From Oceanithermus desulfurans (lineage in GTDB: Bacteria; Deinococcota; Deinococci; Deinococcales; Marinithermaceae), in NCBI RefSeq assembly GCF_014201675.1, contig NZ_JACHEZ010000010.1, forward strand, positions 14,640-78,639: a DNA stretch of 64,000 nucleotides, given 5' to 3'. Within the stretch, counting starts at the first letter, position 1. The number at the start of each line of letters is the position of its first letter. The position numbers were made by a program, and so were the translations under genes. A model generated the notes under the pieces. That model searched no databases, was not told where the DNA came from, and saw only the letters and a program-made list of their open reading frames with translations. Positions 1 through 7,094 of the stretch are shown here, piece after piece.

Positions 1-455
1 CCCAGGCTCGCGGTTCAACCGGTCGGTGACCTCGATGATCGGGTCGAAGGAAAGCTCGGGCGGATAGCCCCGGAAGCGTCCGGCGACGGCACGCCACCAG
101 GACGACCCGGTCGTGGTTTTGCGGGCTGGGGTCTTCCTTGAAGCAGGCCGCCTGGTAGGCGACGATCGGCGGCAAGCCCAGCTCGAGGGCATCGCTCACC
201 ACCCGCTCCAGATGATCCAGCAGCTCGGGTGGCGTCCTCGCGCACGCGGATGCGCACGTGGTCGAAACCCATCCGCTTGAAGGCCCGAGCCTCGTCCCGC
301 CGGTAGAGGCGCATGCCCCGGGGCGTCTTGGCCCAGTCCACGTCGACGCCGACCCCCAGGAGGCGCTGGTAGCTGCGGGGGCTCACGGGTGCCCCGGCGT
401 GCGCGTGGGGTGCGGCAAGCAGCAGCAGCCCAAGCCAAAGAACGATCCGCCGCAT
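1..455 (-). pseudogene. Secreted glycoside hydrolase (GH5/cellulase-like) gene, apparently frameshifted; C-terminal part runs off the window edge
   Basis: N-terminus has a signal peptide followed by 'GVDVDWAKTPRGMRLYRRDEARAFKRMGFDHVRIRV', a GH5-like beginning. Near ~240 the frame degenerates, and the sensible continuation ('...LDHLERVVSDALELGLPPIVAYQAACFKEDPSPQNHDRVV...') lies in another frame (track ORF 196..492). Confidence 0.4.
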
Positions 456-504
456 GCCCTTCAGGCCACACCCGCAACGGGCCCGCTCCCACGCGGATAC
501 GGCG

Positions 505-536
505 TGAACTAACTTGACTTAGCTAAGAACTTAGTT
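505..536. promoter_or_regulatory. Nested palindrome AACTAA-N5-CTTAGCTAAG-N3-TTAGTT with TTGACT hexamers upstream of vapB; putative autoregulatory operator/promoter of the toxin-antitoxin pair
   Basis: Perfect inverted repeats read directly in the AT-richer intergenic stretch before the 549 start. Confidence 0.35.
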
Positions 537-548
537 TACATTGACTTT

Positions 549-785
549 ATGGACAAACAGGTCAACGTGCACATGGCCAAGACCCATCTGTCCCGGCTCC
601 TCGAAGTGGTGCTCCTTGGGGAAGAGGTCGTAATCGCCCGCAGCGGCAAGCCCGTAGCCCGTCTGGTGCCTGTACAGGAAACTCCTTCCCGGCGTACCCC
701 GGGCACGGCCCGTGGCCTCGTGCGCATGGCGGACGACTTCGACGCGCCGCTCCCTGCAGACCTCGCGGAGGCCTTTGGGCCGTGA
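549..785 (+). CDS. vapB: Type II antitoxin, Phd/YefM (prevent-host-death) family, partner of VapC
   Basis: 78 aa. 'AKTHLSRLLEVV..GEEVVIARSGKPVARLVP' is typical of Phd/YefM-like antitoxins. Its stop overlaps the downstream PIN gene start (GTGA). Confidence 0.75.
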   Translation: MDKQVNVHMAKTHLSRLLEVVLLGEEVVIARSGKPVARLVPVQETPSRRTPGTARGLVRMADDFDAPLPADLAEAFGP

Positions 786-1171
786 GTCGCCTCCTTCTCG
801 ACACCCACGCCTTTCTCTGGTGGATTTCCGACGACCCGCGCCTTTCCCCCGCCGCGCGCGAGGCCATCGCCGACGGGGCCAGCGAGGTCTACCTGAGCGC
901 CGTCAGCGTCTGGGAGATGGTGATCAAGATGGGCCTCGGCCGGCTGGAGCTTCCGGAAGACCTCGAGTCCTTCCTGGCCCGCCAGCTGCAAGCCAACGGT
1001 TTTCGCCCCCTGGCCATGACCCTGCCCCACGCGCTGGCGGTGCGCCACCTTCCCGACGTGCACAAAGACCCCTTCGACCGCCTCCTCGTAGCCCAAGCAC
1101 GGCATGAGGAGCTGGTGCTCATAAGCGGCGACGAAGCCGTGCAACGCTACCCTGTTTCCGTGATCTGGTGA
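782..1171 (+). CDS. vapC: PIN-domain ribonuclease toxin VapC
   Basis: 129 aa. 'LLDTHAFLWW', 'SAVSVWEM', 'DPFDRLLVAQA' PIN motifs. Translationally coupled to the upstream antitoxin. Confidence 0.8.
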   Translation: MSRLLLDTHAFLWWISDDPRLSPAAREAIADGASEVYLSAVSVWEMVIKMGLGRLELPEDLESFLARQLQANGFRPLAMTLPHALAVRHLPDVHKDPFDRLLVAQARHEELVLISGDEAVQRYPVSVIW

Positions 1172-1173
1172 GC

Positions 1174-1200
1174 TAGATCCGCTCGAAGTAACGCTTGTGG
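1174..1200. repeat. Left copy of a 21-bp perfect (about 29 bp imperfect) direct repeat 'cta[g/a]ATCCGCTCGAAGTAACGCTTG[t/c]gg'. It duplicates the 3' end (KRYFERI-stop) of the glutamine-synthetase-family gene
   Basis: Identical 21-mer at 1177-1197 and 3747-3767. The right copy is the genuine 3' end of the 3743..5128 gene on the minus strand. Confidence 0.8.
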
Positions 1201-1270
1201 CCCTAATTGGCGATCGCTTCCTCGCAAACCTTCATTACAAACTCGAACGGCGCAGGGATACATTCACGAC

Positions 1271-2410
1271 TCATGATCCCGGGAAAAGCGGGATCAGCAA
1301 TTGCCCTTCCTCATCGATCTCCCACTCGATGTTCGGAAACTTCCACCCTTCTCCCAGTGGCTCAGCCTGGCTCGCTGAGAAGCTCCGGTAGTGGCCGCTG
1401 TTCTTCCAGGATGCGAAGCTTTGTTGACGTCGCTCCGCACTCTTTCTCAACACGCTACAGAAAGGCTGGTATACATGAGCCATCTTTTCATTGCGAGAGC
1501 CAAATTTCGTGCGCAGCACCGGGGCCACACCGACGGGGGAGCACAGGCCCCTGTAGGTTCCGTCCGCAACGAATCGGGTCGCACCGAGTAGGAGGTCTGT
1601 CGCCTGCAGAAGCTCGCTGTCCCCGCGCTCGCGTATGTCTGCCTCACATCTGCTCGGATTGGAGTCTACCGCACGGATCTCAAACCCCGGGGCGATGGAG
1701 AACCCGGGACGAAGCTCTGGCTTGAGGCGCTCTATCACGCGCATCTCGTCAATGGGCCTACGAAGGTGCTCGTCCCCGTCCAGAACCAACCCAAGTACTT
1801 CCACCTCAACGCTGGCAAAAACATGGTCAAGTCCTGTGTATCCGTAGTGCAACACACCTTTGATGGCCATCCGCATGAGAGTCTCGAAGTATTTGAGCTT
1901 CCTCTCAGGATCGTCCCCTGAATAAAACTCCCTCAAATACGGTGTGTTAGGCGGAAAAAAGAGTGCTCCAAAGCGAAAGAATGGGTAGGGGAGCTCACCT
2001 CTTGGTCCCTTTTGCCGGAGAGAATCGCAGGAAAGGTCAAGAACCCGTCTTCCGTATGCTTCTCGCTTGCTCCACTCCTTGCCCGTCATCTCCGAGGTGT
2101 GGAGCTCGCCATCGTACTTGATCTCTGTGCGTATCGCCTGAACCTGAGATAGGAACCCCTCTCTGGGTAAAAGCTGTTGAGCGGGTGTAATAACTTCTCC
2201 GAACAAAGGTGAATCTTCAGGCGGCCACTCAAGAGTCAAGGTCTCAGGCACAACCAGGATGCCGTGGGCATGTCGCTTGCCCTCAGGCAACTCGGCTTTC
2301 TTAGTCTCATCATGATAGAGCCATACCCTGAGAATGGCATTGGGTTTTATATTTGCCATCACTTCAGTATTGCTCAAAAACAGCGAGGCAAGTCGCGAAA
2401 TTTGAACCAT
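1271..2410 (-). CDS. Hypothetical protein (about 360-379 aa; likely real start at the internal 'MANIKPN...'), low-GC cargo gene with no recognisable motifs
   Basis: Long intact ORF in a roughly 52% GC segment (the neighbourhood is about 68%). An AT-rich promoter-like region lies upstream (2400-2650). No family recognised by eye. Confidence 0.55.
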   Translation of the reverse strand: MVQISRLASLFLSNTEVMANIKPNAILRVWLYHDETKKAELPEGKRHAHGILVVPETLTLEWPPEDSPLFGEVITPAQQLLPREGFLSQVQAIRTEIKYDGELHTSEMTGKEWSKREAYGRRVLDLSCDSLRQKGPRGELPYPFFRFGALFFPPNTPYLREFYSGDDPERKLKYFETLMRMAIKGVLHYGYTGLDHVFASVEVEVLGLVLDGDEHLRRPIDEMRVIERLKPELRPGFSIAPGFEIRAVDSNPSRCEADIRERGDSELLQATDLLLGATRFVADGTYRGLCSPVGVAPVLRTKFGSRNEKMAHVYQPFCSVLRKSAERRQQSFASWKNSGHYRSFSASQAEPLGEGWKFPNIEWEIDEEGQLLIPLFPGS

Positions 2411-2652
2411 ACCGGCGCAATTACAATGCGGAACTTATTACGGATGGACAATCCCCGGATGATAGCGGTAGAAGTATTCAAGGCACGTATAATTTTGGTT
2501 ATCACAACATATTTTGACAGCATATCAAAACCAAACTTTGATGTATCACAAATACGACACGGTGCATTCTTGTTGGCTCGTGGGTTCTATGAGTAGGACG
2601 GCGACTGCGATACCAAGGTTGAATACACTCAACCTTGATGCATATCACTCCT

Positions 2653-3669
2653 CTAGCTGTGTAGTCCGACCACGTTGTTCACACTAACCCCCAAGCGTGA
2701 GATCGGCGCCTGGTAGCCCAGGCTGCTGTGGGGGCGGTGCCAGTTGTAGTAGTGAAGCCACCGGGGAAGGCGGGCTGCCCGCTCCTCCGAGCTCTGGTAG
2801 ACGTGAGCATAAGCCCACTCACTCAGCAGGGTGCGGATGAAGCGTTCCACCTTCCCGTTCACCCTCGGCGTATAGGGCGGCGTGGTCCTGTGCCGGATGC
2901 CCAGCCACCGGAGCACCCTTTGGAAACGCTTGGATTGGAAGATCCGGGCGTTGTCGGTCATCACCGCCTGCACCCGGATGCCCAACCTCCGGTAGTGGCG
3001 GAGGGCAGAAAGCAGAAAGGCGACGGCGCTCTCTTTTCGCTCGTTCTCCTTCGTCTCCACGTAGGCCAGCCGGCTGTGGGCGTCCACCGCGGCGAAGACG
3101 AAGGCGTAGCCGGCCTTTGGTGAAGCCTGCCTCCTGTCCCCCGTCACCCGGTGCCCGGGGCTACGGAAGCGGGCCAGCTTCTTGGTGTCCAGGTGCAGGA
3201 GCACGCCGGGAGCCTTTACCTCGAAGCGCTTGGGCAGGGGCTTGGGTTCCAAAACAGAAAGGCGGTTCAGCCCCCGGGCCTTGAGGACACGAGCCACCGT
3301 ACTCTTGGAAAGGTTCAGCTTGAAAGCGATGGCGTGGTAGGTCCAGCGGCGCCTGCGGAGCTCGACGACCCGGCGGCGTAGACCCTCATGGGTTCTTCTT
3401 GGACTGCGGCAGGGACGTGAACTGCGGTCGTAGAGACCTGCTTCGCCTTCTTCACGAAAACGCCTGAGCCACTTGTAGGCCGTCCTCGGGCTCACCCCCT
3501 GGGCCTTGGCAACTTCCCTTACCGGCAGGCCCTCGTGGATAATACGAGACACAAGGATGCGTCTTCCCTCGAACGTTAGTCGCGCGTTCTTGTGGCTGTT
3601 CACTGGGGCTTGTCCCCGCGAAGGCGGGGGCCCCTCCTCTCGTGCCAAAAGCCATTCCTTCACAGGCAC
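2653..3669 (-). CDS. IS481-family DDE transposase
   Basis: 338 aa. N-terminal HTH ('RTAYKWLRRFREEG'), then an integrase-core DDE region ('HLDTKKL...', 'VMTDNARIF', 'YTPRVNGKVERF', 'YNWHRPHSSLG'). Confidence 0.9.
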   Translation of the reverse strand: MPVKEWLLAREEGPPPSRGQAPVNSHKNARLTFEGRRILVSRIIHEGLPVREVAKAQGVSPRTAYKWLRRFREEGEAGLYDRSSRPCRSPRRTHEGLRRRVVELRRRRWTYHAIAFKLNLSKSTVARVLKARGLNRLSVLEPKPLPKRFEVKAPGVLLHLDTKKLARFRSPGHRVTGDRRQASPKAGYAFVFAAVDAHSRLAYVETKENERKESAVAFLLSALRHYRRLGIRVQAVMTDNARIFQSKRFQRVLRWLGIRHRTTPPYTPRVNGKVERFIRTLLSEWAYAHVYQSSEERAARLPRWLHYYNWHRPHSSLGYQAPISRLGVSVNNVVGLHS

Positions 3670-3711
3670 CAGGGTACGGGGTTCCAGTGAACAACGTGTT
3701 GGGAGGTTACA
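2658..3711 (-). mobile_element. IS481-family insertion sequence (about 1.05 kb) with imperfect 25-bp terminal inverted repeats starting TGT (TGTGTAGTCCGACCACGTTGTTCAC / TGTAACCTCCCAACACGTTGTTCAC)
   Basis: The inverted repeats were found by reverse-complement comparison of both ends. A single DDE transposase ORF fills the element and its C-terminus overlaps the left IR. Confidence 0.75.
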
Positions 3712-3742
3712 TCAGCAAAGCCCCTTTGGGGTCCAGTGATAA

Positions 3743-3770
3743 CTAAATCCGCTCGAAGTAACGCTTGCGG
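3743..3770. repeat. Right copy of the direct repeat (the native 3' end of the GS-family gene) that bounds the inserted segment 1198-3742
   Basis: See the left copy at 1174-1200. Confidence 0.8.
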
Positions 3771-5128
3771 TCCCAGTCGGTCACCGCCTGCTCGTAGGCC
3801 TTCCACTCGGTGCGGAAGAAGTGCAGGTAGTGGGCGTGCACCTCCTCGCCCAGCACCCGGCGGGCGAGCTCGCTGGCTTCGAAGAGGTCGGCGGCCTCGC
3901 GCAGGCTGTAGGGCACCCGCGGCAGCTCGGCCGCAGCGTAGACGTCGCCCTCGAAGATCGGCGGCGGCTCGATCCGCTGCTCGATGCCCGCGAGGCCGCT
4001 GGCCAGCATGGCGGTGTAGGCCAGGTAGGGGTTCGTGTCGGCTCCGGGGATGCGGTTTTCCACACGCAACGAAGCGCCCGCGCCGACGACCCGGAAGCCC
4101 GCAGTGCGGTTGTCGTAGCTCCAGGCCAGCCGCGTGGGGGCCCAGGAGGCGTCCTCGTAGCGCTTGTAGCTGTTCACGGTGGGGGCGTAGAAGACCATCC
4201 AGTCGGGGGCGAAACGGATCAGCCCGCCGAGGAAGTGCAGGAAGATCTCGGAGGCCTGGACGCGGCCGATGGACCGCTCGCCGGCAAAGGCGTTCTGCGC
4301 CTCGGCCCAGAGGCTCATGTGGATGTGGCTGCTCGAGCCCGCCTGGCCACCGGCGGGCTTGGCCATGAAGGTGACGCTCATCTCCTGCTGGTCGGCGATC
4401 TCCTTGAGCGCCTCCTTCATGAGCACGTGGCGGTCGGCCATCTCCAGGGCTTCGGTGTAGCGCAGGTTGAGCTCGTGCTGGCCCCGGCCCCACTCGCCCT
4501 TGGTGCTCTCGACGGGGATGCCGGCGTCGCGCAGGTCGCGCCGGGCGGCGGAGTGGAAGGCCTCGGTGCGCGAACCCTGGAAGACGTGGTAGTCCTCCAG
4601 GTACCAGCCCGCGGGCCGAAGGGCGGCGAAGCCGCGATCGGCAAACTCACGGTAAGGGGTCTCGAAGAGGTAGTACTCGAGCTCGGAGGCCGCCATGACG
4701 GCGAACCCCGCCTCGGCGGTGCGCGCCAGCTGCGCCCTCAGCAGGTTGCGCGGGGCCACGGGCACGGGCTCGTGGTTCGCGGTGCTCAGCACGTCGGCGA
4801 GGACGATTGCGCTGCTGGAGGTCCGGTGCCAGGTGGCGGGGCGCAGGGTGTCGAGGTCGGGCACCAGGTGGACGTCGCCGTAGCCGCGCTCCCAGTTGGC
4901 GAAGGCGTAGCCGGGCACCGGGTTCATCTCCATGTCCACGGTGAGCAGGTAGTCGCAGGCGTGGGTACCGGCGCGGGCGGCGGCCTCGAGGAAGAACTCG
5001 GCGTCGAAGCGTTTGCCCATCAGGCGTCCATAGAGGTCGGGGAAAGCGACGATGACGGTGTCGATCTCGCCCTCGGCCACCAGGCCGGCCAGGGCATCGA
5101 GCGTGAGTTTGCCGCGGGGGTGGGGCAT
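3743..5128 (-). CDS. Glutamine synthetase family protein (GlnA3/PuuA-like, about 460 aa)
   Basis: Motifs typical of the GS catalytic domain ('KPAGGQAGSSSHIHMSLW', 'NSYKRY', 'NRTAGFRV..ENRIPGADTNPYLA'). Confidence 0.85.
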   Translation of the reverse strand: MPHPRGKLTLDALAGLVAEGEIDTVIVAFPDLYGRLMGKRFDAEFFLEAAARAGTHACDYLLTVDMEMNPVPGYAFANWERGYGDVHLVPDLDTLRPATWHRTSSSAIVLADVLSTANHEPVPVAPRNLLRAQLARTAEAGFAVMAASELEYYLFETPYREFADRGFAALRPAGWYLEDYHVFQGSRTEAFHSAARRDLRDAGIPVESTKGEWGRGQHELNLRYTEALEMADRHVLMKEALKEIADQQEMSVTFMAKPAGGQAGSSSHIHMSLWAEAQNAFAGERSIGRVQASEIFLHFLGGLIRFAPDWMVFYAPTVNSYKRYEDASWAPTRLAWSYDNRTAGFRVVGAGASLRVENRIPGADTNPYLAYTAMLASGLAGIEQRIEPPPIFEGDVYAAAELPRVPYSLREAADLFEASELARRVLGEEVHAHYLHFFRTEWKAYEQAVTDWDRKRYFERI

Positions 5129-5267
5129 CTTGGCTCCTTTGGACCAGTATACCGCCCGGCGGGTTTTAGCCTTCCTTCAGCGTCAGCTGCCCGCAGGCCG
5201 CGCCCACGTCCATACCTTGGTCCCGGCGAACGGTCGTGGAGATCTCCCCTTCTCATCCCAAAACACG

Positions 5268-5280
5268 CTAGCCTGGCTAG
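5268..5280. promoter_or_regulatory. Perfect palindrome CTAGCC-T-GGCTAG about 25 nt upstream of the second antitoxin start; putative operator
   Basis: 6-1-6 inverted repeat read in the intergenic region between the GS-family gene and the second VapB. Confidence 0.35.
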
Positions 5281-5305
5281 ACTGGGTGTAGAGGTGAGGA
5301 ACATC

Positions 5306-5554
5306 ATGAGAAGCTGGTCGCTTCAGGACGCCAAGAACAAGTTCAGTGAGCTGGCCCGCCGCGCTGAGGTCGAGGGTCCCCAGTTCGTCACCCGGCACGG
5401 ACGTGAAGCCGTGGTGGTGGTTTCCGCAGCCGAGTTCCGGCGCCTGACGGCTCCGCGGGAAGACTTGGTCAGCTTTTTAGCGCATTCGCCGCTGGTCGGT
5501 GAGGGGTTGGAGATTGAGCGCGACGCCTCGCCCGCACGCGAACTGGAACTCTAG
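5306..5554 (+). CDS. vapB: Type II antitoxin (Phd/YefM / VapB-like), second TA pair
   Basis: 82 aa. 'MRSWSLQDAKNKFSELARRAEVEGPQFVTRHGREAVVVVSAAEF' is the canonical Phd/VapB N-terminus. It is the tail of an otherwise antisense artefact ORF (3821..5554). The stop overlaps the downstream start (TAGTG). Confidence 0.75.
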   Translation: MRSWSLQDAKNKFSELARRAEVEGPQFVTRHGREAVVVVSAAEFRRLTAPREDLVSFLAHSPLVGEGLEIERDASPARELEL

Positions 5555-5979
5555 TGCGCTACCTACTCGACACCCCGGTCATTTCCGAGCTGGTGCGACC
5601 CCAGCCCGAGGCACGGGTGGCGGGGTGGGTTCGTCGCGCTGAACCCACCTCGCTGTACTTGTCGGTCATTACCTTTGGCGAGCTGGCCAAGGGCATCGAG
5701 AGGCTGGCCATTGGGGGCAAGCGCCGTCGGCTGCTGGCCTGGGTCGAGAACGACTTGAAGGGTTGGTTCGCGGGTCGCGTCCTGGCAGTGGACCTGGAGG
5801 TCGCCGAGCGCTGGGGGTTGCTCTTGGCTCGTGCGGAACTGGATGGGGCTCCACTGCCGGCGGTGGACGCGCTTCTGGCGGCCAGTGCGCTTACGCACAA
5901 CCTCGTCTTGGTCACCCGGAACACCCGCCACTTCCGGGTGCCGGGCCTGGAAGTCTTCGATCCCTGGACTGACGCCTAG
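5554..5979 (+). CDS. vapC: PIN-domain toxin VapC (second pair)
   Basis: 141 aa. '[16 protein letters not shown]...', '[11 protein letters not shown]', '[16 protein letters not shown]'. Confidence 0.8.
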
Positions 5980-7094
5980 CTTTCCTTCAGCGCCAGCTGC
6001 CCACAGGCCGCGCCCACGTCCACGCCGCGGCTCCAGCGGACCGAAACCGGAACCCCCGCCTCTTCGAGTGCGTGGGCGAAGCGCTGGATCCGCTTCCGGC
6101 CGCTGCCTTCCACCGGCGCGCCCTCCCAGGGGTTGAAGGGAATCAGGTTGACGTGGGCCACCAGGCCCTTCAGAATCCGGGCCAGCTCGCGGGCCTGCTC
6201 CTCGCGGTCGTTGACGCCCCGCAGCATGGTGTACTCGATCGTCACCCGCCGCTTGGTGCGGTCGAAGTAGGCCCGAACGGCGTCCATGATCTCGGCGATC
6301 GTGTAGCGGTGAGCCGTGGGGATGATCTTCTTCCGTGTCTCGTCGTCGGGGGCGTGCAGGCTGAGCGCCAGCTTGACCCCCAGGTCGTCCGCGGCCAGGC
6401 GCCGGATGCCGCGGGGAATACCCACGGTCGAGAGGGTGACGCGGCGGGGGCTCATGGCCAGGGCGCGCTTGTTCAGCATCCGCCGCACCGCCCAGGCGAC
6501 GTTCTCGTAATTGAGCAGCGGCTCGCCCATGCCCATCAGCACCACGTTGCGAATTTCACGGGGAGAAAGGCCCTGGTGGTAGGCCACGGCCAGGATCTGG
6601 TCGAGGATCTCGGGGCCCGTCAGGTTGCGGCCAAAGCCCATCTTGCCGGTGGCGCAGAAGCTGCAGCCGGCGGGGCAGCCCACCTGACTGGAGATGCAGA
6701 CGGTCTTGCGGTCGGCGTAGGGCAGGAAAACGGCCTCGGTGCGCTGGCCGTCGTGCAGGGTGAACAGGTACTTTACCGAGCCGTCGGCCGAAGGAAAGGC
6801 CTGCACCAGGGCGAACTCGCTGATGCGCCACTCGGCGGGCAGGGCCCCGCGCAGGCGGCGCGGCAGGTCGGTCATCTCGTCGAACTCGCGCGCCCCCTTC
6901 TTGTAAAGCCAGCTGGCGATCTGGTTCTTGCGGTAGCCCTTGCCGGGCAGCTCGTCCGGCGGCTCGGGCAGCAGAATAGGCCTGCGCTCGTCGGGCACCA
7001 CCGCCGCCTCGGGCGCCTGCGCGGGCACGTAGCAAGCCCCCCCGTCGGTCGGGGGTTCGTCTCGTTCGGTGCGGAAGGTAGGGCGTTCGTTCAT
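5976..7094 (-). CDS. rlmN: 23S rRNA (adenine2503-C2)-methyltransferase / tRNA m2A37 methyltransferase RlmN (radical SAM). The ORF as drawn probably over-extends the N-terminus
   Basis: '[26 protein letters not shown]' radical-SAM CxxxCxxC. '[12 protein letters not shown]' and '[10 protein letters not shown]' are RlmN signatures. Confidence 0.85.

Follow-up and report, generated by a model that had tools for sequence, protein, structure and literature searches.

How about 2.6 kb of foreign DNA came to separate two genes in the genome of Oceanithermus desulfurans, with the 3′ end of one of them duplicated around it, is the question raised by this locus. It lies at positions 1,174–3,770 of a 64,000-nucleotide stretch (assembly GCF_014201675.1, contig NZ_JACHEZ010000010.1, positions 14,640–78,639; hereafter the window, to which the coordinates below refer), between a VapC toxin gene and a glutamine synthetase (GS)-family gene. 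An original prediction, made from the sequence alone, described an orphan gene and an IS481-family insertion sequence (IS) bounded by a direct repeat of 21–29 bp, and took the duplicated 3′ end as the hallmark of site-specific integration. The insert is the result of two nested, unrelated events: a cassette was acquired, and an IS481-family element transposed into it. For the first event, we tentatively favor integration by a Campbell-type, homology-driven crossover, with the IS481 insertion following afterwards.

Two convergent genes define the site. The left border is the VapC gene (782–1171, plus strand; Pfam PIN), which ends with the TGA stop codon at 1169–1171 and has VapB (549–785; Pfam PhdYeFM) upstream. 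On the right is the intact target, the GS-family gene (3743–5128, minus strand), which encodes a 461-aa protein with a Gln-synt_C domain (Pfam E-value of 3e-97). The same arrangement is present in assembly GCA_007991015.1, contig BJXN01000016.1. Relatives with an empty site came from a scan with the GS protein in which one genome per species was considered. The orthologues of the Oceanithermus metagenome-assembled genome (MAG) S144_44 (L009) and of a Thermaceae MAG (L010) are 96% and 91% identical, respectively. In both MAGs the GS and VapC genes lie stop to stop, 1 bp apart, with the GS stop ending at 5176 and the convergent VapC stop beginning at 5178 in L009, and the corresponding positions being 2837 and 2839 in L010, which is the outgroup by VapC. 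These empty sites indicate that the 2570 bp between the repeats are a true insertion, as had been proposed. The insert holds only two genes, namely a DUF3800-like gene and an IS481 DDE transposase gene. Its GC content is 42–57% over ~1100–2700, compared with 64–75% in the flanks; the reduced GC described earlier for the whole insert applies to this part and does not extend to the IS481 portion, which is near the host flanks (60–66%) and not clearly low-GC. Neither domain matches nor the annotated neighborhood revealed a recombinase or integrase in the insert or within ~8 kb of it, in agreement with the absence first noted inside the insert and extending it to the surroundings.

Exactly two copies of the 21-mer ATCCGCTCGAAGTAACGCTTG occur in the window when up to 3 mismatches are allowed. 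They lie at 1177–1197 and 3747–3767, the latter being the real 3′ end of the GS-family gene, just as originally described. The number expected by chance is none (100 shuffles). The proposed search for further copies yielded none elsewhere in the window, and among the 130 loci compared the 21-mer is confined to O. desulfurans sequences. The C-terminal KRYFERI-stop is conserved across phyla in the GS family, and similar sequence is thus to be expected wherever a paralogue ends, which could favor a common motif in an ancestral arrangement without any insertion. That explanation was ruled out by the repeat count and the empty sites in two relatives, including the outgroup L010, and is further opposed by the left copy being joined to no GS gene body; its probability is negligible.

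The match around the 21-mer is longer than the repeat that was first described. The two copies read CTA[G/A]ATCC...CTTG[T/C]GG with 26/28 identical positions (1173–1200 versus 3743–3770), and their in-register homology reaches 1233/3803, which gives a duplication of ~61 nt (77% identity) rather than 21–29 bp. In the 36 nt beyond the core, 23 positions match, a value attained by just 7 of ~128,000 windows across the whole stretch, a count that takes in the self-match of the segment and the pair of copies itself. On the sequence, the 21-mer is the best-preserved tip of a longer stretch in which the GS 3′ end was duplicated and has since partly decayed. Copy A (3743–3803, minus strand) forms the functional end of the GS-family gene, its last 61 nt, and encodes KAYEQAVTDWDRKRYFERI followed by the stop. 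Copy B (1173–1233, minus strand) is a displaced pseudo-3′ end of the GS gene that reads KVCEEAIAN-stop-GHKRYFERI-stop. The last 25 nt of copy B (1173–1197) are host-like, contain the 21-mer, and are identical to copy A, while its first 36 nt (1198–1233) are 36% diverged, with a change of W to a stop codon. The 13 differences in those 36 nt comprise 11 transitions and 2 transversions, 8 of the changes are GC-to-AT, and the Jukes-Cantor distance is 0.49. The VTDWE motif, kept by all 80 sampled GS homologues, is missing from the copy B remnant, which indicates that copy B is a decayed fragment and not a recent copy of another sampled GS gene. The decayed part is only marginally nearest to Thermaceae (25/42 matches versus 20–23/42 for others). 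The suggestion that the left copy belongs to a longer decayed second GS gene is therefore borne out insofar as it is part of a ~61-nt decayed GS 3′ fragment; this fragment is a displaced duplicate, and there is no second gene.

The sequences that adjoin the two copies are informative for the mode of insertion. Copy B is cassette-type upstream and then host-type, …GGATCTAGCTCACCAG, at the VapC end, where a four-way alignment shows it running on into the host sequence …GGATCTAGCTCACCAGATCACGG as in the empty sites. Copy A is host GS sequence through GGAT and then cassette-type GGATTTAGTTATCACTGG; past GGAT it reads ATT TAG TTATCACTGG…, which is insert sequence, whereas the empty sites read ATC TAG CT. 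With host-type sequence downstream of copy B and insert-type sequence downstream of copy A, the copies are reciprocal chimeras. Both copies in the window share a lineage-specific T (AAGCGTTAC) at a place where other lineages have CGC. A possible homology beyond the stop codon, TTATCACTGG versus CTCACCAG, reached 8/12 only with a gap and was unsupported by the related allele L089 described below; it was treated as not significant.

The inner element is an IS481-family IS (2658–3711, minus strand) of 1054 bp with the ends TGTAACC...CTACACA. Its terminal sequences are TGTAACCTCCCAACACGTTGTTCAC and TGTGTAGTCCGACCACGTTGTTCAC, and the inverted repeats start with TGT. The transposase (316 aa when started at the GTG at 3603, as annotated in the public assembly, and 338 aa when the open reading frame (ORF) is taken in full to 3669) matches Pfam PF13011 LZ_Tnp_IS481 (6e-24), rve (6e-13), and rve_3 (1e-19), and the nearest proteins carry the name IS481 family transposase. 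The boundaries were fixed by aligning the ends with two Oceanithermus copies, L128 (88%) and L129 (84% protein identity). All three copies sit in CTAG. In the window the left target copy is TCTAGC (2652–2657), an NCTAGN site, and the right one (3712–3716) is TC-AGC with one base deleted; L129 has a perfect TCTAGC duplication and L128 has CTAG at both sides. A 6-bp target duplication at NCTAGN is the rule for IS481/IS1002. All tested features of this type are present in the inner element, with no difference of substance, and the family accounts for the inner 1.06 kb only, not for the 21–61-nt repeat. Short-read contigs of the same organism break at both IS ends. The IS is missing from an allele (L089/L130) that carries the same cassette with the same junctions at the same site, which identifies the IS481 element as a later passenger unrelated to the repeat. 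The original prediction was thus right that IS481 transposition did not make the repeat, the IS having its own 6-bp NCTAGN duplication, and right about the IS and its TGT-initiated ends, while the IS does not form one unit with the repeat and represents a separate later insertion. The transposase ORF overruns the IS end, and its TAG stop (2653–2655) comes from the CTAG of the target duplication (GLHS-stop); the same use of the stop is seen in L128 and L129 (RLHT-stop and RLHI-stop, each at ~2150). A megablast search of the IS region against a plasmid collection gave no match.

Without the IS, the cassette is a low-GC, single-gene unit of ~1.45 kb. Read on the minus strand, its first 31 nt (3712–3742; TTATCACTGGACCCCAAAGGGGCTTTGCTGA) lie directly past the GS stop and hold the right IS target copy, followed beyond the IS by an AT-rich leader (2411–2651; ~42% GC) with a hairpin of a 9-bp stem at 2617–2640. 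The DUF3800-like cargo gene spans 1271–2410 and encodes 379 aa from the first ATG; the NCBI and Logan records give 362 aa with the start at 2359. Between the stop of this gene and copy B lies the 3′ flank of the cassette (1234–1270), which is homologous to the corresponding stretch of L089/L130. The junctions common to the window and L089/L130 are GGAT|TTAGTT(A/G)TC(A/G)CTGG and …TTGT(AAT/GTC)G|AAGG. Several GTGATA(C/T/A) / TTATCAC motifs are present in the leader (2411–2657) and one occurs right past the GS stop (3736–3747); from their sequence, these may be operator sites. The leader folds no better than shuffled sequences (z = -0.9), giving no evidence of a structured RNA. Rfam gave no match in window positions 1–6000 at E ≤ 1, nor in 20 related loci at the gathering score, and a promoter and terminator scan found nothing exceeding shuffles. 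The possibility of a small integrated plasmid, with the AT-rich region as iterons and the cargo gene as Rep, was rejected on the RNase H2-like fold of the protein and the lack of circularity of related short contigs.

The IS-less allele illuminates the history of the locus. It was found in a JGI metagenome contig (L089) and, from an independent sample, in Logan (L130), the two being 99.4% identical, with the cassette between GS and VapC. In both, the duplicated 61-nt GS ends are well preserved, with 5 differences between them, and the one beside VapC matches the S144 empty site at 60/61 positions. Between the window and L130, the synonymous divergence (dS) is 0.49 for the cassette gene and 0.42 for the adjacent VapC. 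Given these similar values, the cassette may be as old as the split of the two lineages. A comparison of L089 with L009 gave 3 mismatches across an initial 189 nt, made up of copy B and the VapC 3′ end, and 42 across the following 420. As read from this alignment, homologous recombination has demonstrably acted at this spot and has rewritten the scar differently in sister lineages. With recombination since the insertion, the pattern of presence and absence among lineages is not a clean record of integration events. The order in the L089 contig (Ga0256831_1035327) is the GS 3′ end, cassette, copy B, VapC, truncated VapB, and again the GS 3′ end. The jump from VapB to GS occurs at a ~10-nt microhomology, CGACCTCTTC, and the contig ends (1–136 and 2112–2247) overlap by 136 nt with one mismatch. 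This contig may represent a circle or a tandem amplification of the cassette together with host flanks, or it may be mis-assembled.

These observations suggest the following course of events. Foreign DNA of ~1.45 kb, comprising the DUF3800-like gene and the AT-rich leader, would have entered the very 3′ terminus of the GS gene. A single reciprocal crossover would have recombined the chromosomal GS terminus with a GS-3′-like stretch of at least 61 nt on the incoming DNA, which was most probably circular. Such a Campbell-type integration would be run by host homologous recombination with no dedicated integrase. The crossover would double the last 61 nt of GS, so that copy A keeps the gene intact and copy B is pushed to the VapC side. 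The identity of the terminal 21–25 nt would mark the crossover position, or a later short conversion that re-homogenized the stretch. An IS481-family IS afterwards transposed into the CTAG site of the leader with the usual 6-bp duplication. The predicted circular junction of the excised cassette would read …TTTGTAATGAAGG…core…TTAGTTATCAC…. The insertion relative to the empty sites, the chimeric 61-nt duplication, the nested IS with its own target duplication, the nature of the cargo, and the recombination tracts in relatives are seen in the sequences; we infer the circular intermediate, the dependence on RecA, and when and in which order decay and conversion took place. A homology-driven crossover is favored over an integrase because neither the insert nor its neighborhood contains a recombinase, the copies share 61 nt instead of a short core, homologous recombination demonstrably acts on this very stretch (L089 versus L009), and the repeat of a distant family locus (L095, see below) is unrelated in sequence yet copies the end of a convergent gene. 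Flanking duplications of the homologous locus (109–950 bp) are on record from Escherichia coli, where a circle had recombined with the chromosome by a single crossover (PMC3240628). A 3′-end duplication is on its own no demonstration of site-specific integration, since one homologous crossover with a circle would leave just the same trace (PMC3240628), and the originally proposed site-specific origin is not established.

Several points weigh against this preferred course. The circular form was not observed, and the sole hint of it is the ambiguous L089 contig. Copy B is a mosaic, with 0 changes in 25 nt beside 13 in 36 nt (P ~1e-5 under uniform decay), which requires either that the crossover fell in a patch that had already decayed or that a short conversion was added. 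A perfect identity of 21 nt within a 64%-identical patch would be a poor substrate for RecA, and an integrase acting in trans would be compatible with the sequence. Finally, in L089 the GS 3′ end shares only 83% identity with its relatives, with 8/34 aa changed, while VapC is 89–93% identical. This contrast fits a linear, GS-anchored donor at least as well as a circle.

A linear donor is the basis of homology-facilitated illegitimate recombination (HFIR), which we consider possible but doubtful here. A donor carrying GS and then the cassette would be anchored by its GS sequence, and its other end would be joined illegitimately 61 nt upstream of the recipient GS stop, leaving the last 61 nt of the recipient gene as copy B. 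The xenologous-looking GS sequence upstream of copy A in L089 and the pure host type of its copy B agree with this. High natural competence is a trait of Thermaceae and also counts in its favor. Both the mechanism and orphaned 3′ ends have been described (PMC5361080), and the proposed course resembles the C-terminal displacement by which orphaned 3′ regions arise at Rhs and type VI secretion system (T6SS) loci. However, HFIR was expected to delete recipient DNA, and duplications have been traced to circle crossovers instead (PMC3240628). The 80 GS loci screened included no donor with GS and the cassette but no copy B, the second junction shows no clear microhomology, and the GS gene in the window is host-type up to its last 21 nt.

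Site-specific integration would treat the repeats as attL and attR, with an integrase located elsewhere or lost, an attP that mimics the GS 3′ end, and exchange within the 21-bp core. Direct repeats that copy a gene 3′ end and restore the gene, the precise empty site in relatives, and perfect identity limited to a short core with divergent arms on both sides are all consistent with it. This explanation is nevertheless unlikely: in addition to the missing recombinase, the 5 differences between the 61-nt copies of L089/L130 are scattered through the supposed core, the flanking repeat of L095 is unrelated in sequence, the homologous islet of O. profundus lies at another locus with no repeats, and the records found contain just one cassette copy per genome. 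As to a shared core, the window suggests one of 21 nt, and later recombination at this locus blurs the record.

Members of the cargo family at other loci bear on the same question. They are nearly always low-GC, single-gene islets of ~1.4–1.5 kb. L095, which shares ~29% protein identity, is a 1.5-kb low-GC islet with a 17-nt exact direct repeat (~27 nt imperfect) at 372–398 and 1894–1920. Its right repeat consists of the last 9 codons and stop of a GNAT-family gene on the minus strand, and its left repeat abuts the end of a convergent ORF. The repeat sequence is unrelated to that of the window, and the architecture is the same. No flanking repeats were found around the O. profundus homologue, and most family loci show none; 12-mer repeats in L097 and L101 were dismissed as chance matches. 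The cassette could in principle be self-mobilizing, with the RNase-H-fold DEDD protein, possibly guided by leader RNA or DNA, inserting it at the 3′ ends of convergent genes and generating or using long terminal repeats. The uniform islets and the two independent cases with repeats copying the 3′ end of a neighboring gene (window/L089 and L095) speak for it, as does the report that Pfam DUF3800 genes are accompanied by enigmatic structured RNAs (PMC5737381). Against it, terminal inverted repeats are absent, each genome has a single copy of the gene, flanking repeats are missing from most family loci, and no Rfam motif was found near any member tested; we read the DUF3800 accessory proteins and reverse transcriptase fusions of type VII retrons as effectors, although the paper describing them states that the function is unknown (PMC7736814). 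We regard self-mobilization as very unlikely.

Other features were observed at the related loci. The O. profundus islet (L003) lies between msrA and an HD-domain gene and abuts a ~45-codon 3′ remnant of an aldehyde dehydrogenase gene (4797–4935; …LGYHQLTRVKSYHLRHR and stop); in both O. desulfurans and L010, the full-length version of this gene is located a few kb from the cassette site. Homologues at 61–64% identity (L090 1–292, L091 1–130, L124 1–273, and L126 468–674) have the same GC-rich coding end before the gene (…APVAGRVAEV…VTVEVVLVE…), which overlaps the gene start and in L126 is only a 68-aa ORF, with a divergent DUF4160 gene next to it. This coding end may belong to a partner gene, or be another displaced 3′ fragment that travels with the cassette. 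In L100, an imperfect ~70-nt direct repeat (3490–3557 and 6722–6814) surrounds a 3.2-kb segment with TPR/zinc-ribbon, DUF3800-like, and DinB-family genes, and may be a generic intergenic repeat. In L112 (597–740), a DUF3800-like islet of ~32% GC begins ~400 nt downstream of a tRNA gene, and a degenerate copy of the tRNA anticodon and T-arm sequence just past that gene suggests past integration events. In the O. desulfurans genome, two Phd/YefM-PIN toxin-antitoxin pairs bracket the GS-family gene (549–1171 and 5306–5979), and the public assembly (L006/L007) has a third pair (MazE-PIN) a few kb past the VapBC side, making the region dense in toxin-antitoxin genes.

The cargo protein is 100% identical to an O. 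desulfurans hypothetical protein; an exact look-up of the 379-aa version was empty, and the 362-aa version is on record. The 379-aa ORF had been called an orphan, and this label does not hold, as homologues exist and are DUF3800-like. The O. profundus homologue Ocepr_1970 is 62% identical and sits in a different neighborhood, in a 1.4-kb low-GC islet. Further homologues occur in Thermaceae-like metagenome contigs (57–79% identity) and at 35 metagenome loci (~30% identity), nearly all of which are below their flanks in GC. A profile search of 1.84 billion cluster representatives (50% identity) gave just 182 at E ≤ 1e-3, indicating a small family. In an alignment of 10 sequences, (Y/F)HDE(T/S) is conserved in 9, being absent only from the N-terminally truncated P0008; H33 and E35 are nearly invariant, and D211, Q269, and D272 (LLQxTDLLLG) are invariant. 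An AF2 model of the protein (predicted TM score, pTM, 0.81) had 3pufA as its best structural match, and the protein is predicted to adopt an RNase H2-like fold. The dN/dS ratio of the cargo gene between the window and L130 is 0.22, which indicates purifying selection.

DUF3800 domains also occur in accessory genes of type VII retrons or fused to reverse transcriptases, where they are termed proteins of unknown function; DE and QxxD motifs and a likeness to RNase H2 have been described for them (PMC7736814). The cargo protein has the same N-terminal DE, C-terminal QxxD, RNase H2-like fold, and best match 3pufA. It differs from typical DUF3800 proteins in being below the Pfam threshold and ~100 aa longer, with no reverse transcriptase nearby. 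Pfam DUF3800 (PF12686) gave no match for the window protein, weak matches in 4/10 relatives (best E-value of 0.015), and none in ten more distant members; PADLOC and PHROGs gave no significant family. None of the Rfam motifs DUF3800-I to XI was detected near the cargo gene in window positions 1–6000 or in the 20 related loci. We thus describe the cargo as a DUF3800-like, DEDD, RNase-H2-fold protein, not a confirmed DUF3800 member, and as a candidate nuclease or defense protein.

Comparison with known systems places the outer element closest to Campbell-type homologous integration or C-terminal displacement. With Campbell-type single crossovers it shares the direct duplication of the common sequence, copies that are reciprocal chimeras, an empty site that can be restored by recombination between the copies, and no need for an element-borne recombinase. 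It differs from such cases in the very short shared stretch (61 nt, with 21 nt perfect in this strain) and in a site exactly at a gene 3′ end that leaves both convergent genes intact. C-terminal displacement by HFIR at Rhs, contact-dependent inhibition (CDI), and T6SS loci (PMC5361080) likewise has a conserved gene as the anchor and an old 3′ part that is displaced and orphaned. In the present case, however, the displaced piece is just 61 nt, the gene product is unchanged, and the cargo is an unrelated gene past the stop codon and not a toxic C-terminus. Genomic islands flanked by att sites have the same repeats copying the 3′ end of the target, the restored gene, the low-GC foreign insert, and empty sites in relatives. 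Unlike them, the cassette has no integrase or excisionase and consists of one 1.45-kb cargo gene, its homology runs past the core on the wrong side, reaching into the gene body in the displaced copy, and the related islet L095 does not share its repeat sequence.

The gene-acquisition scar described here is well documented but fairly ordinary. It provides a worked example that a direct repeat of a gene 3′ end around foreign DNA is by itself no proof of an integrase att site, and it removes the orphan label from a small unannotated family with a DUF3800-like, RNase H2 fold. A thermophile lineage has gained a candidate nuclease or defense gene with neither of the two abutting genes disrupted. As a lead, insertion at the 3′ ends of convergent genes may be a recurrent feature of such cassettes. 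It is conceivable, though we consider it quite unlikely, that DUF3800-like single-gene cassettes are minimal integrase-less mobile units homing to the stop-proximal ends of convergent genes. This homing may rely on carrying a copy of the target 3′ end, such as the KRYFERI-stop tail, or on the RNase-H2-fold DEDD protein aiding integration. If true, it would account for the near-exclusive occurrence of the family in 1.4–1.5-kb low-GC islets and for the 3′-end-copying repeats at two unrelated members, window/L089 and L095.

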